From a virus: a DNA stretch of 64,000 bases. The notes below the pieces were generated by a model. The model was given only the letters and a program-made list of their open reading frames with translations. It ran no database searches and was not told the DNA's origin. The translations under genes and the position numbers were made by a program. Where the stretch lies: the IMG/VR virus record IMGVR_UViG_3300029362_000615. One strand, given 5' to 3'. This document shows, piece by piece, positions 2,799-26,125 of the stretch (position 1 is the first letter of the stretch; each line of letters begins with the position of its first letter).

Positions 2799-3020
2799 AT
2801 GTGGGATTTAGTTGAAAATGAATATTCTAAAAAATATGGAATTGGGTGCGCAACCTTTTTTCGTGACAAACAATTAAAAACAGCAATGGTTATGTATAAA
2901 TATAATGGCCGTAGCGTTATGTTTTGCTATTCCGAGTACGATAATAAGATTCTATCTGACGGTGATAAAAACGAAATTGAGATGACAATCAAAAAGAAAC
3001 TCAACTTTTGGGAGGATTAA
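2799..3020 (+). CDS. MWDL-family small protein, copy 1 of 3 tandem paralogs
   Basis: Starts MWDLVENEYSKKYGIG; similar to the next two ORFs. Confidence 0.5.
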   Translation: MWDLVENEYSKKYGIGCATFFRDKQLKTAMVMYKYNGRSVMFCYSEYDNKILSDGDKNEIEMTIKKKLNFWED

Positions 3021-3022
3021 CT

Positions 3023-3259
3023 ATGTGGGATTTAATGGGTAACAATTATTCAGAAGTATACGGTATTGGATATGCTTTACTGAATGGAATTTCAGCTGGG
3101 TTTTATGTGAGTGTCATGTACAAGGATCTTGGAGATGAAATTTACTTCTATTATCTTGATAATGCTCCTTACGGAGAACTTGATGATAATACCAAAAATA
3201 AAATTGAGGATATTATCCGTGATGACCTTAACAAGCGTCATATTTTTGGGGAGGACTGA
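3023..3259 (+). CDS. MWDL-family small protein, copy 2
   Basis: Internal ATG of track ORF 3008..3259. Starts MWDLMGNNYSEVYGIG. Confidence 0.5.
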   Translation: MWDLMGNNYSEVYGIGYALLNGISAGFYVSVMYKDLGDEIYFYYLDNAPYGELDDNTKNKIEDIIRDDLNKRHIFGED

Positions 3260-3261
3260 TT

Positions 3262-3510
3262 ATGTGGGATCTGAGGGAAGTTCACGCTTGTTTTGATGGT
3301 GAAGGCTGGGTTTGGAATGAATCTTTCCATCACAAGAATGTGTTCGTAGACGCGAATGAAGATCCGAAAGAAATCTTTTGGCAGGAATGTCAGATGTTCT
3401 TTCTTCAGGATTATCTAAGCAAGTGTGAAATCGTGGATGATGGCGATATTCTGGAGCTTCAGTTGAAAGATTCCGGTGAACCGGTTCTTGCTATGATGAT
3501 TGCAGAGTAA
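3262..3510 (+). CDS. MWDL-family small protein, copy 3 (diverged)
   Basis: Starts MWDLREV...; ORF track. Confidence 0.45.
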   Translation: MWDLREVHACFDGEGWVWNESFHHKNVFVDANEDPKEIFWQECQMFFLQDYLSKCEIVDDGDILELQLKDSGEPVLAMMIAE

Positions 3511-3523
3511 AGGAGAATAAATT

Positions 3524-3844
3524 ATGAAAATTCACCCTAAATATATTGATGTTTTGGAATCGCTGGATTGGCGCGTATGTGACTATACAGGTGATGGCAG
3601 AGTTGAAATTGAAAATTATTCTCCAGCAGGAGAGGACTTAATCGTTTGTGTGGAGGTTGAAAATTTTCCTGAATCAGTTTATGAGTATGCCTGTGATTTT
3701 GATGCTGATGAGCACGCAGAGATGTGGGTGGGGCATCGTGGGGAAAGAGGTTGTCCTTCTAGCGTCAGAGAACTTATTGACGATGCTGATGCTATTAAAG
3801 AAATGTTGGAAGAATTAGCTAATAGACTTATGGAGGTGGAATAA
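3524..3844 (+). CDS. hypothetical acidic protein
   Basis: ORF track; D/E-rich. Confidence 0.45.
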   Translation: MKIHPKYIDVLESLDWRVCDYTGDGRVEIENYSPAGEDLIVCVEVENFPESVYEYACDFDADEHAEMWVGHRGERGCPSSVRELIDDADAIKEMLEELANRLMEVE

Positions 3845-3847
3845 ATT

Positions 3848-4120
3848 ATGACTCGTTTTTATCTTAATGCGGGTGCTCTTGGCCGTTGGATGCACCAGAA
3901 TAAAGCACAACACACTGGTGCTTATGTTGAAGGTGTTTTGGTCGATAGCTTTGTTGTCGAAACAAAGCGTGGTGTTGCAGCTATCTATGAACACTACCTG
4001 AATGAGTGGACAAGCAACTATTATGTTGAGTTCACCGATTACAAGAACGGTTTTAAGAATGGAGAGGTCGATAAGATTTGGTCTGATTGGTACGCTTTTG
4101 AAGAAAAGGCAAGCGCATAA
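3848..4120 (+). CDS. hypothetical protein
   Basis: ORF track. Confidence 0.45.
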   Translation: MTRFYLNAGALGRWMHQNKAQHTGAYVEGVLVDSFVVETKRGVAAIYEHYLNEWTSNYYVEFTDYKNGFKNGEVDKIWSDWYAFEEKASA

Positions 4121-5934: not shown

Positions 5935-6498
5935 ATGGCTATCGTAAATGGATTTGATACTCAGAAACTGCGGTATATCCTCTTTGGTGATAGAGGCTAT
6001 GAGATATACAAGGAAAACGATTTTTACTACCTAAGTAATGGATATGTTCTTGTAAAATGCGATTTTGATGTTATCGCTAAAACACTGTCAGATTTGCCAG
6101 AGTTGAAGATTCCTAACAATGGATATGGTTATAAGTTTGATGAGAAAGATGGTTGGTCTGATTCTGATATTACAATGCTTCACAAATATTTTGAATACGT
6201 AAATCCTAGTCGTTGTTCATATTGGGAAAAATTTCATGATGTAAAAGAGTTTAGACGAATTCAGCACAAAGAAATCAGAGGTTGTTGTGAATATAGTTAT
6301 CCGTGTATTGTTTGCGAGATGGACAATGGAAATAAGGCTTTACTAAATGAGAAGTATACAAATATTCTAGCAAAAGCGAAAAAGTGGGGCTGGTTTGCAG
6401 AGTGCAAGGATAGTTTGAGCAGCGTTCACTTTATGAATAAACAGAACACTCTTGAAGCATGGATTTGCCCAATTCGTTACAAAGAAGGTGCCATCTGA
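5935..6498 (+). CDS. hypothetical Cys-rich protein
   Basis: ORF track. Confidence 0.5.
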   Translation: MAIVNGFDTQKLRYILFGDRGYEIYKENDFYYLSNGYVLVKCDFDVIAKTLSDLPELKIPNNGYGYKFDEKDGWSDSDITMLHKYFEYVNPSRCSYWEKFHDVKEFRRIQHKEIRGCCEYSYPCIVCEMDNGNKALLNEKYTNILAKAKKWGWFAECKDSLSSVHFMNKQNTLEAWICPIRYKEGAI

Positions 6499-6692
6499 TG
6501 TATTACCATCTTGAATATTCTGTCAGACATTTTATGTACGGCGATACGTATAGAGGGCATGAAATCTATCCCACAAAAGAGCTGCGTGATGCAGAGCTTG
6601 ACTGGATGAAAACGTGTTACAGTAAGCCGACAGAGCTTGTCTATACAACGTATGAAACCGAAACACTTAATGAAGATAAGATAACAATATAA
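6498..6692 (+). CDS. hypothetical protein
   Basis: ATG overlaps upstream stop (TGATG); track ORF 6459..6692. Confidence 0.4.
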   Translation: MYYHLEYSVRHFMYGDTYRGHEIYPTKELRDAELDWMKTCYSKPTELVYTTYETETLNEDKITI

Positions 6693-6698
6693 AGGAGA

Positions 6699-6998
6699 AT
6701 GGATATGACGGCACGAGAGATTGCAAAAGATTTTATTTCTAAGATGAATCCGTCTAGGTGGGCTGGCGTAGGTCAAAAACCTGATAACTTTGACACTAGA
6801 ATTAAAACATACACCATTGATGGTTTTTATGAATATGAACTTGATATTTCATATGATGAAGATGAGCTTGGTTACGTTGTTATGCTTGAAATAAGATGGG
6901 CAGACGATGGAGAGCTAATTTACGTTCTTAATACTCAAAGGGTTAATTCTGAAGATGCAATCGAATACTCAATCGATTCTCTTATTGATAATCTTTAA
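6699..6998 (+). CDS. hypothetical protein
   Basis: ORF track; GGAGAATG RBS. Confidence 0.45.
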   Translation: MDMTAREIAKDFISKMNPSRWAGVGQKPDNFDTRIKTYTIDGFYEYELDISYDEDELGYVVMLEIRWADDGELIYVLNTQRVNSEDAIEYSIDSLIDNL

Positions 6999-7023
6999 TA
7001 GAATAATATAAAGGAGAATGAAT

Positions 7024-7197
7024 ATGACAAAATTTGAGAAACAGACGGTTATTAACGCATTGCATTTTTATAGCGAATATTGTTGCAACCACAGTGAAAA
7101 ATCTGCGAATATGATAGCACAGAAATGTACGGCTGAAGGATTGCTTTATATGTTTCAATCTATTCTGGATGAAAAGGCAGGAAGTGTAAAAATCTAA
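7024..7197 (+). CDS. hypothetical small protein (57 aa)
   Basis: Hand-translated; AAAGGAG RBS 8 nt upstream. Confidence 0.35.
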   Translation: MTKFEKQTVINALHFYSEYCCNHSEKSANMIAQKCTAEGLLYMFQSILDEKAGSVKI

Positions 7198-7218
7198 ATA
7201 GAATCGAGGTTTTAAAAA

Positions 7219-7440
7219 ATGATTACGGTTGTTTATGATGATACGATGTGTAATGGGCCTTACCGTGCAGAACACAAAACAATGGAAGCTGCGGTAGAGT
7301 CTGTTAATAATGATTTCGAGAGCCTGATGAAAGAACTGCGAGATGAAGGCTATAAACCTGAATGGATTCGTGACGGCCATCATATGCTTGAGGTTTATGT
7401 TCCGAATACGTCTATTAACGCATGGTTGGATTTTGAGTAA
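7219..7440 (+). CDS. hypothetical protein
   Basis: ORF track. Confidence 0.45.
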   Translation: MITVVYDDTMCNGPYRAEHKTMEAAVESVNNDFESLMKELRDEGYKPEWIRDGHHMLEVYVPNTSINAWLDFE

Positions 7441-7451
7441 GGAGAATTAAA

Positions 7452-7799
7452 ATGAAAATCAAACTTGAAATCGAAAACGACTATGGGCTCTTTAAAGCAA
7501 ATAACTGCAACGAAGAAGAATATTTAAAATTTTACGACAGTGATGGTGAGTTTATTGAAGCTATTGATGTGAGCAATGTTATTACAGAAGAAATGGATGA
7601 TCTTTATTTGGCTGCAACAAGTAAGGATTCGCATTATGTTGCTATTCGCTTGGCAAAACTGCTTTACAATCAAGGAATTGAAATTGTTGGAGTGTTTCGT
7701 GGAGGTGATTTGGGCTGTATGTATGAACTGTACAAGACATACGGCAGAGAGTTTGTAAACCGAATCGGTGAATACGCATTAGTGATTAAGGAGATTTAA
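7452..7799 (+). CDS. hypothetical protein
   Basis: ORF track. Confidence 0.45.
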   Translation: MKIKLEIENDYGLFKANNCNEEEYLKFYDSDGEFIEAIDVSNVITEEMDDLYLAATSKDSHYVAIRLAKLLYNQGIEIVGVFRGGDLGCMYELYKTYGREFVNRIGEYALVIKEI

Positions 7800-7801
7800 A
7801 A

Positions 7802-8008
7802 ATGGATACTAATGAAATCAAAATGTTTGAGCAGAAGATGATTGACAGTGCATTTATTGACGCTGTTGATTATGATCCGAAGATTGCCGCACGAGCTGTG
7901 GGAGTACGCAAGCTGAAAATGAATGGCGTGTGCTCCTTTGACGAATACATTGGTTTTTTGCAGACCATTACCGGCAATGCAAAGCTGTTCTGGAAGTATC
8001 AGTTTTGA
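7802..8008 (+). CDS. hypothetical protein
   Basis: ORF track. Confidence 0.45.
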   Translation: MDTNEIKMFEQKMIDSAFIDAVDYDPKIAARAVGVRKLKMNGVCSFDEYIGFLQTITGNAKLFWKYQF

Positions 8009-19186: not shown

Positions 19187-21406
19187 ATGCAGATGAGAAC
19201 ACTTTTACTGTTCCGTGGAGCACCCGGTTGCGGGAAGTCCACCTATATTAAAGAGCATAATCTTGAGCAGTACGTATTGAGTGCTGATACACTTCGCCTT
19301 ATGTGCCAGAGCGCACAGGAAACACCTGATGGGCAGATGGAGATTTCTCCGCAGAATGATGATGTTGTATGGGAGATGCTTTTCAAACTGCTTGAGGTGC
19401 GGATGAGCCATGGCGAGTTTACTGTGATTGATGCAACGAATTCCAAGACGGTCGAAATGAATTGTTATAAGAATCTTGCAAAACAGTATCGTTATCGGAT
19501 GTATGTTATTGATATGACGGACCTTCCGATCGAGGAATGCAAACGAAGAAACGCTCAGAGAGAATGGCTAAAGCGAGTTCCTGAAGCGGCTATTGATAAG
19601 ATGTACGCTCGGTTTGCTACTCAAAAAGTTCCTTCTGGCGTGACAGTTCTTCCTTCTACTACGGATGTGATGTCCGATTTGAACTACTGCCCGAATGACT
19701 TTAACCAGTGGAAAAAGATACATATCATCGGTGATATTCATGGCTGCTATACCTGCTTGAGTGAATACCTTGGTGAGATGAAGGACGACGAGCTTTATAT
19801 CTTCGTTGGTGATTATCTCGATCGTGGCATCGAAAACGTTGAGGTATTCAAGTTCTTGTGTGATGTTGTAAATAACAACCGCAAGAATGTGATCCTTTTG
19901 GAAGGGAACCACGAGCATTGGCTGAACAAGTGGGGGCATGATAAACCGGTTCAAAGTGAAGAGTTTGCAAACTACACTCGTCCGCAGCTCTTTAAAGCCG
20001 GTATTGACAAGAACACTGCTCGTAAGATCTATTCCAGAGTCGGCCAGTGTGTCTACTTTGAGTATGATGGTAAGCGGTATTTCGTAAGTCACGGTGGTCT
20101 GAGCTATCTTCCTTATTTTCTTCCGTTCGTGTCTGCGGATCAGATGATTAAAGGCGTAGGCCGCTATCCTGATATACTGACCGTGGCTGAGTCTTGGGAA
20201 AAGTCGATGCCGGATAGCTATATTCAGATCTTCGGCCATCGAAATGTACAGGATGTTCCTATTGATATGGGTCATCGGTGCTACAATCTTGAAGGCAAAA
20301 TCGAGTTTGGTGGATATCTTCGTTGTGTGGAGCTTGAACACGGTCAGCCTATCAAATGCGTAGAAACCAAGAATGATGTATTCCGAAAAGAGGAGCCAAA
20401 GACTGAAACTGCCGTTGAAATGAAAACTGAGTTCGATAACGCAGAACTTGTTAGTAAGATGCGTCAAAGCAAATATGTGTTTGAGAAGCGATTCGGAGAT
20501 ATTTCTTCTTTCAACTTCTCTCGTGAAGCATTTTATAAGAAGCACTGGGATGAGGTTTCTACCAAAGCAAGAGGGTTGTTCATTAACACAAAGACGAATA
20601 AGATTGTAGCTCGAAGCTATGATAAGTTCTTTGCGGTTGATGAGCGGAATGAAACGAGAATTGGAAACCTACAGAACACTTTGAAGTTCCCGGTGACTGC
20701 ATATCTAAAAGAGAACGGATTTCTTGGTATCATTTCGTATGATGCAGAACAGGATGGTCTGTTCATTGCAAGTAAATCCACTCCTGATGGGCCTTTTGCA
20801 GATATGTTCCGAAAGATTCTCATGGATACGACTTCTGATGAAGATCGTAAGAATCTGAAAGAAGTTGCAAAAGAGAATGGCTCCATCATCTTCGAGGTGA
20901 TTGATCCTGTGAATGATGCACATATCATCGAATATAAGAAACCGCACATTGTTTTGCTGGATATTATTGCAAATGATATGAATTTCAGTGTAATGGATTA
21001 TGATGATTTGAAGCGTGTAGCCGAGAAGTGTCATCTGCAGATTAAGGAGAAGGTTAAAACCTTTGAGAACTGGAGTGAATTCTATCCTTGGTACGAAGAA
21101 GTCATGAACGAGAACTATCTGCATCATGGTTTTGAACACGTTGAAGGCTTTGTTTTGCGAGACAGCAATAATTTCATGTTTAAGCTGAAGCTTCTGTATT
21201 ATAAGCACTGGAAGTTCTTGCGTGGTGTCATGCAGAGCGTTCAAAAACGTGGCTATTATGAAAATACCGCAAAGTTGTTTACTGCCGAGGATAACCTGTT
21301 CTATGGTTGGATGCGTGAACAACGAGAGAAAGATCAAGAGTCTTTCTGCAAGAAGGGTATTATTCAGCTGCGGAATGAGTTCTACGCAAGTCAGCAGAAG
21401 AGCTAA
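19187..21406 (+). CDS. pnkp: bacterial-type polynucleotide kinase-phosphatase-ligase (Pnkp) RNA/DNA end-healing and sealing enzyme
   Basis: N-terminal P-loop GAPGCGKST, a central calcineurin-like phosphatase (GDIHG, GDYLDRG, GNHE), and a C-terminal nucleotidyltransferase with KENG lysine motif. Second ATG at 19193 has better RBS spacing. Confidence 0.7.
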   Translation: MQMRTLLLFRGAPGCGKSTYIKEHNLEQYVLSADTLRLMCQSAQETPDGQMEISPQNDDVVWEMLFKLLEVRMSHGEFTVIDATNSKTVEMNCYKNLAKQYRYRMYVIDMTDLPIEECKRRNAQREWLKRVPEAAIDKMYARFATQKVPSGVTVLPSTTDVMSDLNYCPNDFNQWKKIHIIGDIHGCYTCLSEYLGEMKDDELYIFVGDYLDRGIENVEVFKFLCDVVNNNRKNVILLEGNHEHWLNKWGHDKPVQSEEFANYTRPQLFKAGIDKNTARKIYSRVGQCVYFEYDGKRYFVSHGGLSYLPYFLPFVSADQMIKGVGRYPDILTVAESWEKSMPDSYIQIFGHRNVQDVPIDMGHRCYNLEGKIEFGGYLRCVELEHGQPIKCVETKNDVFRKEEPKTETAVEMKTEFDNAELVSKMRQSKYVFEKRFGDISSFNFSREAFYKKHWDEVSTKARGLFINTKTNKIVARSYDKFFAVDERNETRIGNLQNTLKFPVTAYLKENGFLGIISYDAEQDGLFIASKSTPDGPFADMFRKILMDTTSDEDRKNLKEVAKENGSIIFEVIDPVNDAHIIEYKKPHIVLLDIIANDMNFSVMDYDDLKRVAEKCHLQIKEKVKTFENWSEFYPWYEEVMNENYLHHGFEHVEGFVLRDSNNFMFKLKLLYYKHWKFLRGVMQSVQKRGYYENTAKLFTAEDNLFYGWMREQREKDQESFCKKGIIQLRNEFYASQQKS

Positions 21407-21523
21407 ATTAAAAAATAGACATTTTATCGTGATTTTCGTTAAAATAATTAACGAAGTATCGTGACATTTCTTCCTCCGAAAATGCTCTGCGCGGGGCTGA
21501 CAGCCGGGAAAGACCGGCAATAT

Positions 21524-21608
21524 GGGGATATGGTGAAATTGGCAGCCACGCTTGATTCAAACTCAAGTGTCGAAAGACGTATCGGTTCAAATCCGATTAT
21601 CCCTACCA
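21524..21608 (+). tRNA. tRNA-Leu (anticodon CAA), type II with long variable arm, CCA encoded
   Basis: Acceptor GGGGATA/TATCCCT, anticodon loop TTCAAAC, T-loop GGTTCAAATCC. Confidence 0.8.
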
Positions 21609-21808
21609 TGAAGATCAGTTGTTCTAGCTCGTTCGGGGATTGGCCGTACATTGGCGACCGGAAAGACGTCATACCGGTAAAGGACGTCAAGCCAGACAAG
21701 AAGAGAAATAAGGTGTAAGCCGACTAGCTATCGGATAAATACTCTTCGATTCGCCAGAAAACTAGAATGTAAAACGAATGGTTGGCTGTTTCTGATCTTC
21801 TTTTATAT

Positions 21809-21891
21809 GCGCCCGTGGTGGAATCGCAGACACAGGAGACTTAAGATCTTCTGCCAGAGATGGCGTGCGGGTTCAAGTCCCGCCGGGCGCA
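21809..21891 (+). tRNA. tRNA-Leu (anticodon TAA), type II, no encoded CCA
   Basis: Acceptor GCGCCCG/CGGGCGC, anticodon loop CTTAAGA, T-loop GGGTTCAAGTCCC. Confidence 0.8.
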
Positions 21892-21898
21892 TTTGTAT

Positions 21899-21974
21899 CT
21901 GGGCGTAGCGAAGTTGGTATCGCACCTGTTTTGGGAACAGGGGACCGCAAGTTCAAACCTTGTCGCTCAGACCA
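21899..21974 (+). tRNA. tRNA-Pro (anticodon TGG), CCA encoded
   Basis: C1-G72 acceptor pair, anticodon loop TTTGGGA, T-loop AGTTCAAAC. Confidence 0.8.
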
Positions 21975-22061
21975 GCCCGAAAGGGCAAGGAAAAATTGTC
22001 CTCACATTATTCCCGGCTCTCTGGAAACGGAGCAGTGTGACGTAGTAAGCTGGGTATATGA

Positions 22062-22132
22062 TGCGCCATCGCCAAGCGGTAAGGCAGAGGACTTTGACTC
22101 CTCCATCGCAGGTTCGACCCCTGCTGGCGCAA
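22062..22132 (+). tRNA. tRNA-Gln (anticodon TTG), U1-A72 first pair
   Basis: Acceptor TGCGCCA/TGGCGCA, D-arm GCCAAGCGGTAAGGC, anticodon loop CTTTGAC, T-loop GGTTCGACC. Confidence 0.8.
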
Positions 22133-22135
22133 TAT

Positions 22136-22217
22136 GCGGATATGGTGGAATGGCAGACACGCCAGATTTAGGATCTGGTGCTTCGGCGTGTGGGTTCGAT
22201 GCCCACTATCCGCACCA
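22136..22217 (+). tRNA. tRNA-Leu (anticodon TAG), type II, CCA encoded
   Basis: Acceptor GCGGATA/TATCCGC, anticodon loop TTTAGGA, T-loop GGGTTCGATGCCC. Confidence 0.8.
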
Positions 22218-22316
22218 CGGTCATAGAATGGTTGCGTACCGTTTGTTGATCTCCTTTACTATTATTCCCAGCTCGCTCGTAAGAGTGCAGTAGTGCTTTG
22301 TAAGCTGGGTTTACAT

Positions 22317-22391
22317 GCAGCGGTCGTATAACGGTTAGTACATCAGCCTTCCAAGCTGAGGATGAGGTTTCGACTACCTTTCGCTGCTCCA
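22317..22391 (+). tRNA. tRNA-Gly (anticodon TCC), CCA encoded
   Basis: Acceptor GCAGCGG/TCGCTGC, anticodon loop CTTCCAA, T-loop GGTTTCGACTACC. Confidence 0.8.
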
Positions 22392-22581
22392 ATTTCGTAT
22401 GGGTAGGGATTTTAAGCGGTCAGTCCCGGCCGCGCCTGTGCGAAATACCACCCTGAAAGGGGCGAGATATAGGAAATGTGCATCGCTGTTATTCCTTCCT
22501 CGTCTATATGATATAGATGCAATAGTGTTTTATAAGGAAGGTGCCCAGTTGAATAGTTGCAGCTGTTTAACTGGTTTTTAT

Positions 22582-22658
22582 GGGATAGTAGCTCAGCTGG
22601 TCAGAGCTGGCGGCTCATAACCGCTTGGTCGGGAGTTCAAATCTCTCCTGTCCCACCA
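22582..22658 (+). tRNA. tRNA-Met or tRNA-Ile2 (anticodon CAT), elongator type, CCA encoded
   Basis: Acceptor GGGATAG/CTGTCCC with G1-C72 pair, anticodon loop CTCATAA, T-loop GGGAGTTCAAATCTCTC. Confidence 0.8.
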
Positions 22659-22718
22659 GCCCAATAGGGTATACATAAAACTGCTAGAACTTTTGTTTTA
22701 TAGGCGACGAAATAACAT

Positions 22719-22732
22719 GACGTTGATACGTC
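22719..22732 (+). promoter_or_regulatory. variant copy of the palindromic operator (GACGTTGATACGTC)
   Basis: Related to TAACGTGGATACGTTA at 24834 and 53280. Confidence 0.35.
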
Positions 22733-22761
22733 TATTATTTTTTTGCTCATTTTCTGAGTTT

Positions 22762-22783
22762 TAGCTATATAATACAGGATATG
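22762..22783 (+). promoter_or_regulatory. 22-bp conserved promoter/operator element (forward) TAGCTATATAATACAGGATATG
   Basis: Upstream of the methyltransferase gene. Confidence 0.5.
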
Positions 22784-22793
22784 AAAAGGAGGA

Positions 22794-24789
22794 ATGAAAA
22801 CTGAAGCATTACGGAGATATTACACAACTTCATGGGTGGCAGATTGAACCGGTTTCCTGTATCACAGGAGGCAGTCCATGCCAAGATTTGAGTCAGGCCG
22901 GTAAACGTGAAGGTTTGGCTGGTGAACGCTCTGGATTGTTCCTTGAAATGATTCGTGTGATTACAGAAATGAGGGAGGCCACTAATGGAGAATATCCAAA
23001 ATTCGCAATCTGGGAAAATGTCAGAGGAGCTTTCAGCTCAAGCAAAGGTGAAGACTTCAGATGTGTGTTGGAAAGATTTGCACGCATTGTCGAGCCAGAC
23101 GTTTCAATTCCTCGACCTTCAGGGAAGAACGGAAAGTGGGCAAAATCTGGAGCGATTTCCGGTAATGGATGGTCTCTTGCATGGAGATTGTTCGACGCTA
23201 AATACTGGGGAGTCGCCCAGCGTCGCCAGAGAATCGCGCTTGTCATGGATTTTGGAGGACAACGTGCCTCAGAAATTCTATTTGAGCGCACGAGCATGTC
23301 AGGGGATTCTTGTGAGAGCATCCCGGCGTGGAAAACCTTTGCCCGAACTCCTGAAACAAGCGTTGCTGGATATGATCGAATGGTGGAATCCAGGAACTCT
23401 GTCACAGGTGGTGCAGAAAGTGAAGGAACAAGAAGGTCTGGAAGAGAAGGAATTGGACGAGTATTGGAGTCAGACCATCGAGAGACTTCGACTCAATGCA
23501 CAGAACCTGCAGCCTACACTCTAAAAATCCGTTCTGGATGTGAAGGTGGCGGTAAAGGCGCTCTGGTTCAAACTGAATTGAGCGCAACGATTTCTACGTT
23601 ACAAGACCAGACGCTGATTTGCTTGGCAGAAAATCCCTCCTTACATAATTTAAAACAAAAGATTTCGCCGGTGGTGTTTGAGAGCCACAGTCAGGACGCT
23701 CGATACACTCAGCAGAGTGATACAAGTCCGACTTGTACTGCTCAGTGGGGAACTGGTGGCAATAATATGCCACTGGTCATTGAGAAGAAAGCCTTTGCGA
23801 TGCAACGCATTGGTGAATACAAGGAAAGTGAACAGGCTAGTACGATGAAATCTCGTGACTACAAGGACGCTACTGACCTGATTACAGAAAAAGAATCGAA
23901 GAATCTACGATGGATTGTTCGCCGTTTGACTCCTTTGGAGGATGAACGGCTTCAGGGGTTTCCTGAAATTATGGAGGCAAATATTACAGAAATGACAAAA
24001 GATGAATATATTGCTTTCAACTTAGCTACGGGTCAGATTATCGCAGATTGTGAGAATGGAAAAGTGTATACCACAAAAGGTCCCGGCGGAAACATTCTTA
24101 AAGAACCAAAAGAACTTAGTGGGACAATTATTAAAGGTTATCGAGTTGTTAGCATCCGAAATGGTGATGTAAAAAAGCAATGTAGGGTTCATCGAGTTAT
24201 ATGGATTGCTAAAAATGGAATTATTCCAGATGGTCTGGTTGTTGACCATATCAATAACGACAAGCTAGATAATCGAATTAGTAACCTTCAGCTATTAACC
24301 GCAAAGGACAACTCTACTAAAGCTTCAAAGGATGGCCTGTATTTATCTGGAAATGAAAACCCTGTGACAGTTCTTCCAGAAGAAAAACGTATTGAAGTAG
24401 CACTTATGTATCAAACAGGAGAATTTACAATGCGCCAGCTTGCTGAAAGATACGGAATCAGTAAAAGCCGTGTCCAGCAAATTGTAAAAACATATGGATG
24501 GACCGATATTGGCGAGTGGATTGACGAGAATGGTAAAAAGCACAAGCCAGCCGATTCTCCTCGGTACAAGGCGCTCGGCAATTCGATTGCTTTGCCTCAG
24601 TGGTATTGGATTTGCCAGAAGATGAAACCGTATATTGGTGAAAATCCTACGCTTGGCAGTCTTTTCGATGGAATCGGTGGCTTTCCGCTTGTCTTTGAAA
24701 GTACGTATGGTGATGGTACTGCTATCTGGGGATCTGAAATTGAACCGTTTTGTGTTGCGGTGACAAAGAAGCATTTTCCAGAAGATTAA
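22794..24789 (+). CDS. cytosine-5 DNA methyltransferase with circularly permuted motif order (III-IV-VI-VIII-TRD-IX-[HNH+HTH insertion]-X-I-II); apparent 1-nt frameshift after the ATG
   Basis: Motifs GDITQ, GGSPCQ, ENV, QRRQRIALV, RRLTPLEDERLQGFPE, YKALGNSIA, then LFDGIGGF and SEIEP..KHFPE at the C-terminus. ATG 22794 is in frame only if one A of the A4 run at 22797-22800 is removed. The long ORF in the given sequence runs 22798-24789. Confidence 0.6.
24136..24312 (+). other. HNH (HNH_3-type) endonuclease domain inserted in-frame between methyltransferase motifs IX and X, followed by a helix-turn-helix segment to about 24558
   Basis: GYRVVSIRNGDVKKQCRVHRVIWIAKNGIIPDGLVVDHINNDKLDNRISNLQLLTAKDN, then LPEEKRIEVALMYQTGEFTMRQLAERYGISKSRVQQIV. 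Confidence 0.65.
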
Positions 24790-24833
24790 ATCTCATAAAA
24801 GGCTAATTTTAGCAAGAAAATAACGAAAAATTA

Positions 24834-24849
24834 TAACGTGGATACGTTA
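24834..24849 (+). promoter_or_regulatory. palindromic operator TAACGTGGATACGTTA (6-4-6) overlapping a TATAAC -10 box
   Basis: Perfect inverted repeat 30 nt upstream of gene 24879. Second copy at 53280. Confidence 0.5.
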
Positions 24850-24878
24850 AAATATTGCGAAAAGAAAGTGATAAATCA

Positions 24879-25259
24879 ATGAATCCGGTTGAATTTCTTA
24901 GTAACGGACAGTTTAAGGCAAAGAATGGGGAAGATAAGTATTCTGTTAGAATCGCAAGGAAAGGAATGCCATACAAGACTATTTTTGTTCATTATAAAAA
25001 TGGTTTTAATTCCGAACTGATGCTTTCTAGTGAGGTCATTTCTGATGGAACACTTTATTTTACTTACGGAGCTATTAGAGACGTTATTCTGAATACACTT
25101 TCTTTAGCCTATGATGAAAACAAGGCTGTTATATTAGGAGATGTTTTAATTAGTTCTGAAACTGGAAATTTTGGAACAAAAGAAAAGCCGTGGTTATGTG
25201 ATAAAACCGTTGTACGATTACCATACCAATTAGTTGAGGAGTGGCACGATGAACAGTAA
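24879..25259 (+). CDS. hypothetical protein (126 aa) downstream of methyltransferase and under the palindromic operator
   Basis: ATG inside track ORF 24855..25259. Confidence 0.45.
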   Translation: MNPVEFLSNGQFKAKNGEDKYSVRIARKGMPYKTIFVHYKNGFNSELMLSSEVISDGTLYFTYGAIRDVILNTLSLAYDENKAVILGDVLISSETGNFGTKEKPWLCDKTVVRLPYQLVEEWHDEQ

Positions 25260-25479
25260 AATTCCTATCAATGTAACCATTGATTCCGGTTCCTTGAGCC
25301 TTCCGGCAAGTCCTATCTTCCAGAAGGAAAAGAGCACATATCTCTGTCCGTTCTGTGTAACGAAGCTAGAGAAGCTTAAACCGAAATGTCCAGAGTGTCA
25401 TCACAAGATGGATTGGAGTGCGTGGATGGATAAGAATGCAAAGCACAATTATGCATTTGCTGAAAGTGGTGTGTTATGA
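25249..25479 (+). CDS. zinc-ribbon protein
   Basis: CPFC...CPECHH. Confidence 0.45.
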   Translation: MNSKIPINVTIDSGSLSLPASPIFQKEKSTYLCPFCVTKLEKLKPKCPECHHKMDWSAWMDKNAKHNYAFAESGVL

Positions 25480-25850
25480 AAGATTGGATGCACGCAAAGA
25501 AAAAAGAGATTGAGAACATGACTTTTGACCAAGCGAAGGAAATTGTAGAGAAACAAATTCGTCTTGGTAAAGAAGGAGGCCAGTGGTGCCCTCGTGAGCA
25601 TTTAGTAAAGGCTCTCGAAATTATTCTTTCAAAAGCTGAACTTTATGAGTTTAGAACAGATTACAAAGAGCCTCTTTTCGATGACGTTTATAAACGTTAT
25701 GAGTGCCCGGTTTGTTATTACACACTATCAAATCTTGATAACTTCTGTCCACGTTGCGGACAATTACTTGATTGGCGATTTATAAGGCATTGGGAGAGAA
25801 CGATTCGTCCCACGCTTGAAAGACTGCAGAAGGAGGAGGTGCAGAGTTGA
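25476..25850 (+). CDS. zinc-ribbon protein
   Basis: CPVCYYTLSNLDNFCPRCGQ. Confidence 0.45.
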   Translation: MKDWMHAKKKEIENMTFDQAKEIVEKQIRLGKEGGQWCPREHLVKALEIILSKAELYEFRTDYKEPLFDDVYKRYECPVCYYTLSNLDNFCPRCGQLLDWRFIRHWERTIRPTLERLQKEEVQS

Positions 25851-26125
25851 ACATAGATTTCTTCCAACGGCGAAAGACACAGCTTGAAGATACGCTTCTT
25901 TTGAAAAATCAGGCAGTCGATATGCTTGATTATCTAAAGACACATTGTATCAACAGCGACCAATATTGTGCCATTCGGGATTACATTGAAGAAGCTGCTA
26001 AGATTCTGGAGAGTGACCTCGAATATGCAAACAATAAGCTACAGTCCGCATTTAAACCTAAGTATGGCCGGAACAATAGACTGACTCGTGTTCAATCTAA
26101 GATGTTCCGTGATAGAGAATATTAA
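25847..26125 (+). CDS. hypothetical protein
   Basis: ORF track. Confidence 0.4.
   Translation: MNIDFFQRRKTQLEDTLLLKNQAVDMLDYLKTHCINSDQYCAIRDYIEEAAKILESDLEYANNKLQSAFKPKYGRNNRLTRVQSKMFRDREY

Follow-up and report, generated by a model that had tools for sequence, protein, structure and literature searches.

The window, that is, the whole stretch of DNA that was analysed, comprises 64,000 nt of the IMG/VR record IMGVR_UViG_3300029362_000615, and its region 22719-24789 (+ strand) carries a gene for a DNA methyltransferase of the cytosine-5 type (C5-MTase) whose conserved motifs are circularly permuted. We are confident that this locus is one functional gene, a naturally permuted DNA C5-MTase with a CTG start, an HNH cassette and a nested open reading frame (ORF) in the +1 frame. 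The gene lies in frame 1 of the window (called frame 0 in the comparisons below), which is open from TGA 22795-22797 through TAA 24787-24789. A first-pass annotation of this DNA mentioned neither the nested +1 ORF nor the dual-coded stretch 23254-23521. Our evidence consists of sequence architecture, conservation, selection patterns and predicted folds, and it concerns the following features.

22788-22792, + strand: Shine-Dalgarno (SD) sequence GGAGG, 8 nt upstream of CTG 22801, kept in all relatives
22801-24789, + strand: permuted C5-MTase coding sequence, 662 aa, CTG start, TAA stop at 24787-24789
22813-22827, + strand: motif III, GDITQ
22867-22884, + strand: motif IV with the catalytic Cys, GGSPCQ
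22973-22978, + strand: SD-like GGGAGG for the +1 ORF, after the +1-frame TGA 22970-22972
22985-23524, + strand: nested +1 ORF, 179 aa, with its own SD and ATG 22985; stop at 23522-23524
23014-23022, + strand: motif VI, ENV
23218-23244, + strand: motif VIII, QRRQRIALV
23254-23521, + strand: dual-coded stretch, +1 frame under purifying selection, frame 0 open with unconstrained sequence
23908-23955, + strand: motif IX, RRLTPLEDERLQGFPE
23908-23966, + strand: motif IX (RRLTPLEDERLQGFP) to the cassette insertion point directly after CCTGA
23967-24494, + strand: in-frame, putatively mobile cassette, I-HmuI-like HNH plus helix-turn-helix (HTH), 528 nt, 176 codons
about 24184-24315, + strand: HNH_3 domain, E 6.6e-19
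about 24379-24495, + strand: HTH segment, HTH_23 E 2e-5
24495-24569, + strand: divergent tract directly 3' of the cassette, 75 nt, 71-76% identity to empty alleles
24562-24747, + strand: block from motif X to motif II
about 24565, + strand: motif X, YKALGNS (YKALGNSIA)
24661-24684, + strand: motif I, LFDGIGGF
24733-24747, + strand: motif II, SEIEP

The C5-MTase hallmarks I (FxGxGG), IV (PCQ), VI (ENV), VIII (QxRxR), IX and X are all present, at the positions where the first-pass annotation had located them. Read in translation, they follow the order III-IV-VI-VIII-target recognition domain (TRD)-IX-HNH cassette-X-I-II within one ORF, which is not the canonical linear order from I to X. Profile searches upheld the permuted order: Pfam DNA_methylase (PF00145) matches the protein in four stretches (E 7e-31), next to the HNH_3 match listed above, and TIGR00675 (dcm) scores 105.7 bits, above its curated cut-off of 100.65. 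In a phmmer comparison with M.HhaI, query residues 3-89 pair with HhaI residues 57-136 (motifs III-VI), the sole stretch that is significant alone, and the part at 22813-22884 (motifs III-IV) aligns with HhaI residues 57-90. Residues 580-604 pair with HhaI 290-314 (motif X) and residues 620-659 with HhaI 16-53 (motifs I-II); these two matches are sub-threshold but colinear, and the latter agrees with the earlier assignment of the C-terminal LFDGIGG segment to motifs I-II. Since the protein starts near the equivalent of HhaI residue 57 and ends near that of residue 53, it is circularly permuted at the II/III junction, as had been proposed and as the motif reading and the homologues also indicate. 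The old termini are joined by 25 aa, from GNS to LFDG, in agreement with the first estimate. With its N-terminus between motifs II and III and with X linked to I, the enzyme is of Type B; the Type H arrangement (M.BssHII type), in which the N-terminus lies in the variable region and IX-X precede I-VIII, is not what is found. Judged by its motifs, the enzyme would transfer a methyl group to cytosine C5 in DNA. The strands that bind S-adenosylmethionine would be supplied by the C-terminus (motifs I-II), packing beside the motif X helix as in canonical enzymes.

The predicted fold was obtained with AlphaFold2 (AF2) for a cassette-free homologue, P0100, rather than for the window protein. Residues 1-165 (III-VIII) and 370-484 (IX, X, I, II) of this model have pLDDT values above 90, with 90-97 in the region of motifs X-I-II, where the motif X helix is followed by strand-helix-strand-helix as expected for motifs I-II. 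Its best fold matches in the PDB are M.HhaI, M.MpeI and M.HaeIII. Two features of the model speak less clearly for a single permuted core: its TRD part is of low confidence, and the order-dependent fold searches aligned only about 145 columns and did not directly verify the packing of motifs I-II.

The architecture is shared by many independent sequences. A search of 5.8 billion proteins returned hundreds of near-identical proteins (97% identity) on contigs of up to 100-400 kb, all ending in ...GNSIALPQWYWI.QKMKPYIGENPTLGSLFDGIGGFPLVF...KKHFPE, and when 1.84 billion cluster representatives were searched exhaustively with HMMER, 3,358 matches at E <1e-30 were obtained. Among the best 150 of these, which represent distinct clusters at 50% identity, more than 100 are permuted, starting MKHLGDITK... 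and ending ...WASEIEEFPIAVTK..F, and about 25 are canonical, with MTLGSLFDGIGGFPLAG... first. In bacterial genomes, permuted genes were found at no fewer than 12 of 80 loci, all in Clostridia or Oscillospiraceae, and the cultured Faecalibacterium phage FP_Toutatis also carries a permuted methyltransferase. Taken together, these sequence comparisons show that the Type B permutation is genuine and common and defines a large natural family. The rarity implied by the first-pass annotation therefore does not hold, and its concern that the locus might be a chimeric assembly or two genes is answered by the same architecture in hundreds of independent assemblies.

Variation on this plan was also seen. 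In one homologue, P0118 (567 aa), a dUTPase domain (PF00692) is fused after motif I and replaces motif II, the outcome of a gene fusion or else of a deletion that brought neighbouring genes together. In four loci of the window clade (L041, L042, L044 and L056, about 3001-3870) the ORF ends at 289 aa (...SLHNLKQKF*), where the tblastn match also stops; these alleles are truncated or interrupted in the TRD.

The start of the gene was compared across 80 IMG/VR loci, in which the window clade (94-99% identity) is represented by 22 unique sequences. All 22 have CTG at 22801, with GGAGG 8 nt upstream; the preceding four nucleotides differ among them (AAAA, AACT, GAAA, AAAC, GGAA, AAGA), so that there is no slippery site. 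The same column holds GTG in the next clade, ATG in L039 (MEHLGDITK) and in P0100 (MKHLGDITK), and TTG in others; over all permuted genes fetched, the start codons are GTG in 66, ATG in 46, CTG in 22 and TTG in 9. Over the 29 codons from CTG to TTG 22888, the variable sites number 6, 4 and 16 at the first, second and third codon positions, and this third-position bias over codons 22804-22887 shows that the stretch is translated in frame 0. The simplest reading of these patterns is that CTG 22801 serves as the initiation codon. On the other side of the balance, CTG is a weak start codon, and an out-of-frame ATG (22794-22796), 7 nt upstream of it, is also conserved in the clade. This ATG, 1-2 nt past the SD, opens a 17-codon ORF (MKTEALRRYYTTSWVAD, 22794-22847) that overlaps the CTG start, and it may compete with or tune CTG initiation.

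Other accounts of the 5' end and of the gene as a whole were weighed against these data. The first-pass annotation, which described the out-of-frame ATG and the A4 run at 22797-22800 correctly, proposed that one A must be removed to give MKLKHYGDITQ. A frameshift at the start, either as a sequencing error in the A4 run or as a programmed +1 shift from ATG 22794, would draw on the conservation of that ATG and its overlap with a TGA. We consider it very unlikely: the arrangement is identical in about 45 independent assemblies, ATG 22794 lies only 1-2 nt after GGAGG, the nucleotides between this ATG and the invariant CTG vary, features of a prfB-like frameshift are missing, and the CTG column matches the GTG, ATG and TTG starts of relatives at equal distance from the SD. 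Equally hard to credit is a start at TTG 22888 or a later ATG, as chosen by gene callers, which would yield a DNA-binding protein without motifs III-IV and hence catalytically dead. Most database entries are indeed called from MSQAGKREG..., but codons 22804-22887 are under purifying selection in frame 0, with a predominance of changes that are silent in that frame and alter the +1 frame, and the motif III-IV peptide is conserved down to relatives at 51-54% identity.

A non-ATG start and an unusual motif order might suggest that the gene is a pseudogene in decay, or that two tandem methyltransferase copies were joined into a chimera during assembly, and some relatives are in fact fragmented, including the four truncated alleles above and 27 genes in which both frames are short. 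We give this explanation almost no weight, as the ORF is uninterrupted, variation along the whole gene is dominated by third positions (136 changes silent in frame 0 versus 15 in the 3' part), and the identical architecture recurs in isolate genomes as well as in hundreds of contigs of separate studies. The first-pass annotation also raised, as an alternative, a Dnmt2-like enzyme making m5C in tRNA, in connection with the adjacent tRNA array and a Pnkp gene. The gene does adjoin seven tRNA genes and a kinase-phosphatase-ligase gene in all of its ~130-kb relatives. This idea nevertheless appears highly improbable: its closest kin are DNA C5-MTases of phages and prophages, P1-type Dmt among them, many of the relatives lie in prophages without a tRNA array, and Schizosaccharomyces pombe Dnmt2 (6fdf) is a weaker match (E 0.006) than M.HhaI (8e-6), so that the closest similarity is not to the Dnmt2 type. 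The reading as a permuted DNA C5-MTase that starts at CTG 22801 is thus retained. Gene callers systematically truncate the family: most database entries begin after the catalytic Cys, since the actual start codons are CTG or GTG or are located upstream of an insertion of 4 nt (described below). Catalogues of gut-virome methyltransferases, and anti-restriction predictions made from them, are biased as a result.

An HNH_3 endonuclease and an HTH segment had been noted in-frame between motifs IX and X, with no intein residues, and our results confirm this; the position stood, and the size of about 190 aa is corrected to 176 codons. Alignment with cassette-free alleles sets the exact boundary, with CCTGA immediately before the cassette and TGGATGG at its 3' border. 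The empty target site is GGGTTTCCTGA joined directly to TGGATGGACAGATATCGG, and the insertion turns GFPD-GWTDIG into GFPE-(IMEAN...VKT)Y-GWTDIG. The cassette matches the HNH endonuclease family phrog_59 (E 3e-30) and I-HmuI (PDB 1u3e; phmmer E 7e-4, residues 433-563, 131 residues), and the DH..N..DN residues are present in the HNH part; it thus has both the catalytic motif and the DNA-binding module of an HNH homing endonuclease. In a comparison of about 250 genes, the spacing from IX to X is 201 aa in the window versus 20-30 aa in 185 related genes, and a spacing of about 200 aa occurs in three lineages only, namely the window, L039 (ATG start) and L080 (GTG start). The cassette occupies exactly one site in these three lineages, and the site is empty in about 250 genes. 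Within the window population, three clusters carry the cassette versus hundreds of empty alleles that are 97-99% identical. The 75-nt tract on its 3' side, which is divergent from empty alleles that are 97-100% identical upstream, is likely to be a co-conversion or immunity tract, judging from the alignment.

The intein reading was ruled out, since the junctions (E/IMEAN...VKTY/GW) lack a Cys, Ser or Thr at the start, a His-Asn end and a downstream nucleophile. An intron was ruled out as well: the search of 21000-26000 for intron RNA gave no Rfam intron family at E <=1, the only results besides the tRNAs being two chance hits below threshold within a tRNA, and the whole 528 nt is coding sequence that keeps the frame. 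We conclude that the cassette encodes a homing-type nuclease, which the methyltransferase tolerates as an inserted domain in a surface loop before motif X. It would be translated as part of the methyltransferase, and as a nicking-type nuclease it would spread or be lost by recombination between alleles; both cleavage and homing are predicted here from its sequence. Between the three lineages the cassette is 75%, 66% and 62% identical, and the catalytic core 61%, 60% and 65%. This about equal divergence (62-75% versus 60-65%) tempers the view of the cassette as a mobile element, in that it gives no sign of recent horizontal transfer between lineages; it indicates that the element is old and was not recently exchanged among these lineages. 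At the cassette start (23971-23973, codon 2-3), the window has I-M-E, L039 has I-V-E (with GTG) and L080 has Y-M-E, and thus an internal start codon is kept at this position. It could permit separate translation of the nuclease fused to motifs X-I-II. The locus shows that a homing-type nuclease can persist as an in-frame domain insertion, as neither an intron nor an intein.

The nested +1 ORF begins 1-7 codons after a conserved +1-frame TGA, which in the window (22970-22972) is made by the frame-0 codons for K-E-M-R, and GGAG or GAGG precedes its ATG. This arrangement of SD and ATG is conserved in about 70 of 76 genome loci. In the AF2 model of the +1 protein, the N-terminal 80 aa, overprinted on motifs VI-VIII, are disordered (pLDDT <50), and a conserved helical C-terminal domain (LSWILEDNVPQKFYLSARACQGILVRASRRGKPLPELLKQALL..., with the peptides LSWILEDNVPQK and ACQGILVR) has a pLDDT of 85-94. 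The frame-0 stretch opposite this domain is predicted to be a disordered linker (pLDDT 31-39, P0100 residues 169-234). We then counted polymorphism at non-singleton sites among 38 window-clade genes, as changes that are synonymous in frame 0 and nonsynonymous in +1 (S0/N+1) versus the reverse (N0/S+1).

22801-23229: S0/N+1, 32; N0/S+1, 6
23230-23253: S0/N+1, 0; N0/S+1, 0
23254-23521: S0/N+1, 3; N0/S+1, 22
23522 to the end: S0/N+1, 136; N0/S+1, 15

Selection switches back to frame 0 at the +1 stop codon (23522-23524). The features of an overlapping gene are therefore all present, namely stop depletion in the +1 frame only, purifying selection there, and initiation signals of its own. Distant relatives lack a GTG at 23263, which rules it out as an internal start of the +1 element.

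Stop depletion was seen well beyond the window clade. Across 70 genes taken from a range of bacterial genomes, a single +1 stop was counted in about 8,700 codons (700 codons for each 10-codon bin, from which this figure is derived) over the stretch from -75 to +50 codons relative to the Gln of motif VIII. Outside that region the density of +1 stops is 0.03-0.11 per codon, and the +2 frame is normal throughout. Over all sets, the +1 frame is open from -60 or earlier to +45 or later in 241 of 242 unique genes, and the +2 frame is open in none of the 242. As a negative control, the classical M.Rho11sI has 11 +1 stops over the same span. The ORF occurs in canonical and permuted genes alike (56 canonical loci, and also L161), including those of Streptococcus Javan phages, Vibrio phage CP-T1 (gp12), the P1-like JL22 (Dmt) and mycobacteriophage Porcelain (gp116); in Javan105, JL22 dmt, CP-T1 gp12 and Porcelain gp116 (L329-L332), 135-163 +1 codons are open versus 7-13 stops in +2. 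In each case it overlaps motif VIII in the +1 frame of the annotated coding sequence, and the records examined carry no annotation of it. The gene configurations fall into three kinds: 167 genes resemble the window, with frame 0 continuous and a short +1 ORF; in 22, frame 0 stops about 60-100 codons past motif VIII and the +1 ORF continues through TRD-IX-X-I-II; and in 27, both frames end within 200 codons. Since the +1 frame carries the rest of the enzyme in the 22 genes, no enzyme could be produced from them unless that frame is translated.

As to what the +1 domain is, its family profile aligns to residues 203-240 of M.Rho11sI (FNFKWSAQDIVGRRLREILEEYVDEKYYLSEEKTSKLI), in-frame after motif VIII (hhalign E 2e-4). 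No Pfam or NCBIfam family matches the +1 protein, its only PHROG match is phrog_16143 "DNA methyltransferase" (E 6e-5 to 6e-6), a Foldseek search with its model gave nothing below E 1, and a database search with its peptide returned only "hypothetical proteins" of 71-166 aa, all of which are the same +1 ORF. Literature searches on an overlapping gene in C5-MTases and on clamp-binding methyltransferase partners found nothing relevant. The bacterial sliding-clamp-binding consensus is QL[SD]LF. A motif Q[LVIM][STD][LIMV]F stands at the N-terminus of 26 of 216 +1 ORFs versus 32 of 3,898 control ORFs, for example in MENIQLSLFGK, EQVSLFD and MTFDQLDLFP (thus begins the copy of Porcelain), with a register relative to frame 0 that differs; that this subset binds the sliding clamp is offered as a hypothesis only. 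Three observations count against the wider interpretation: the hhalign probability of the M.Rho11sI match is only 47%, the family profile found no match among PDB sequences, and the copy in the window (MENIQNSQSGK) is without the QL[SD]LF-like motif.

The best reading of the pattern of stops, selection and initiation signals is that the +1 ORF is a genuine, separately initiated gene, whose domain appears to correspond to the ILE..KYYLS segment that leads into the TRD, in-frame after motif VIII, in classical C5-MTases. The frame-0 polypeptide would replace this segment with a disordered linker, and the small protein, if translated, would then most likely work with the methyltransferase as a subunit or adaptor. 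A different route to the same element is a +1 frameshift after motif VIII, near CTT GTC ATG GAT TTT GGA GGA, giving an isoform of III-VIII plus the element, or the whole enzyme where the +1 frame continues. The 24 nt without polymorphism at 23230-23253, the conserved CTT-G and SD-like GGAGGA near motif VIII, the 22 genes in which +1 runs through the rest of the enzyme, and a DNA-level fusion in L198 (...ADFAGVTPPKYYFSEKAC) are all in keeping with it. However, a frameshift product would need neither the 75-80 or so stop-free +1 codons upstream of motif VIII, which were found in 241 of the 242 genes, nor a conserved SD and ATG just past a conserved stop, and we regard this route as improbable. 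With separate initiation as our preferred reading, a broader proposal can be made, at somewhat less than even confidence: that a large subfamily of phage and prophage C5-MTases, canonical and permuted, holds an unannotated +1 gene of about 130-180 codons conserved across phyla, from P1-type Dmt (JL22) and Vibrio CP-T1 by way of mycobacteriophages to phages of gut Clostridia, that its product, made up of a short linear motif at the N-terminus (QL[SD]LF-like in a subset), a disordered linker and a helical domain homologous to the ILE..KYYLS segment, is an obligatory trans subunit or adaptor, and that many permuted relatives need recoding at UGU-UAG-N within PCQ. If this is true, one segment of the enzyme's own structure is encoded in a second frame of its gene. 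The +1 ORF, provided that it is translated, ranks among the same-strand overlapping genes of bacterial viruses with the widest conservation. Its host enzyme family is well studied and counts P1-type Dmt among its members, which makes a direct test in E. coli possible.

A related irregularity was observed in FP_Toutatis (L328; MG711466, about 6463-7874), where the permuted methyltransferase is annotated as two coding sequences. The first shifts into the frame of the nested ORF at a poly-G run (CTGCGGGGGGGGGAGATGG) upstream of motif VIII, and early frame shifts of this kind are also found in P0127 and P0200. The switch in FP_Toutatis could be phase variation, slippage or a sequencing error.

The recoding site concerns a second clade of the same phage group, in which a 4-nt insertion, absent from the window, separates the Cys and Gln codons of PCQ (...GGT GGT TCA CCT TGT TAG N CAR GAY...). 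It is carried by at least 120 IMG/VR contigs overall (loci L047-L078, L080 and L208-L327; for example L047:3070-3094), as TAGA in 46, TAGC in 26 and TAGT in 3. Every insertion is accompanied by a GTG start and by a leader of 27 codons, and this leader is under purifying selection (8 synonymous versus 1 amino-acid change between two variants, counted by eye). Across the site the sequence reads GGTGGTTCACCTTGTTAGNCAR; conservation of the 18 nt GGTGGTTCACCTTGTTAG exceeds 90%, with synonymous sites counted, and UUCACCU at the insertion has its complement, AGGUGAA, at the start codon. On this conservation, TAGN is probably an obligatory recoding site, for example for a +1 shift at UGU-UAG-N. Reading TAG as Gln was ruled out, since the downstream part is still out of frame when TAG is sense, and a quadruplet-decoding or suppressor tRNA was rejected after ARAGORN gave ordinary anticodons only on the adjacent arrays.

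The surroundings of the gene place it in a phage genome. Directly upstream lie the following features.

19187-21406: kinase-phosphatase-RNA ligase gene, 739 aa, phrog_8238 (E 5e-226), directly upstream of the tRNA array
21524-22658: array of seven tRNA genes (three Leu, Pro, Gln, Gly, Met), directly upstream of the methyltransferase gene
22719-22742, + strand: terminator-like hairpin and T-run at the 3' end of the tRNA array
22744-22775: TTTAGCTATATAATACAGGATAC, upstream of the SD, with a perfect TATAAT, kept in all ~130-kb relatives

The last of these is likely to be a promoter; a consensus promoter scan did not report 22744-22775, where the -35 match is weak. The order from ligase gene to tRNA array is kept in relatives, and the two together are possibly a tRNA-repair module against host anticodon nucleases. 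The window forms the module for replication and nucleotide metabolism in a ~130-kb gut phage. The same strand holds the kinase-phosphatase-RNA ligase, the tRNAs, the methyltransferase, a Sak4-like gene, DnaB, RecJ, DNA polymerase, a helicase/exonuclease, DNA ligase and NrdD. A megablast search of 22400-25000 against GenBank phages returned tRNA fragments only. Phage orphan methyltransferases have an established role in protecting DNA from host restriction, and by analogy the C5-MTase at this position most plausibly protects replicating phage DNA in the same way.

Several known systems resemble parts of this locus. The P1-type Dmt, Vibrio CP-T1 gp12 and Omega-like mycobacteriophage methylases belong to the same subfamily, with ...QRRxR...EILFE... 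in frame 0 and the same +1 ORF, but unlike the window gene they have the canonical motif order I-X. In P1-type phages the enzyme also carries an additional methyltransferase-like domain as a fusion, as read from JL22 Dmt; P1 and P7 are represented by tblastn matches only. The cassette resembles I-HmuI (1u3e), the HNH nicking homing endonuclease from the intron of the DNA polymerase gene of Bacillus phage SPO1, in having an HNH catalytic core followed by a C-terminal HTH. I-HmuI is encoded inside a group I intron, whereas the cassette is an in-frame domain of its host protein without intron RNA or intein residues. Plant DRM2 (7l4c and related entries, weak matches) also has rearranged C5-MTase motifs, with the order VI-X then I-V, but it is eukaryotic and stands in an unrelated context. 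M.AquI is a split C5-MTase made from two overlapping ORFs, and the 22 relatives whose frame 0 stops past motif VIII, leaving the rest to an overlapping +1 ORF, are of a similar kind. The window gene differs in that frame 0 is continuous and the +1 ORF is short and nested, with an overlap of about 130-180 codons rather than a few. Split enzymes such as M.AquI have been described as 'bisected naturally' (PMC5944983).

Natural permutation in one polypeptide, as in the window enzyme, is known from the Type H enzymes M.BssHII, M.Alw26I, M2.Eco31I, M.Esp3I and M2.BsaI, all of which, like 22 more REBASE entries, have their break in the variable region (PMC5944983). Their accepted origin is a tandem duplication followed by truncation at both ends. 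They have IX-X before I-VIII, whereas in the window enzyme the break lies between II and III and only I-II have moved. Albert et al. (2018) found no natural Type B example among 20,677 REBASE entries (PMC5944983), our literature search found no later report of one, and the view that the II/III break point is new among natural permuted C5-MTases is consistent with its absence from the searchable literature. The nested +1 gene with its conservation across phyla, and the non-standard initiation or recoding at the family's 5' end, are likewise absent from that literature. The closest counterparts are the engineered Type B permutants, which were the most active ones made in that study (PMC5944983). 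They are defined, as in cp62M.MpeI, by an N-terminus between motifs II and III, and the topology is fully active in M.MpeI (PMC5944983). As in the window gene, the old termini of these constructs are joined directly or by a short linker, and a split after motif VIII leaves them active as a pair of fragments (PMC5944983). The window enzyme differs from them in being natural, in belonging to another C5-MTase subfamily, and in carrying an HNH cassette and a nested ORF. Since a natural Type B family exists, its absence from REBASE reflects sampling and annotation and not a biophysical limit, and the family described here is the natural counterpart of the topology that engineers found best tolerated and that was puzzlingly missing in nature.

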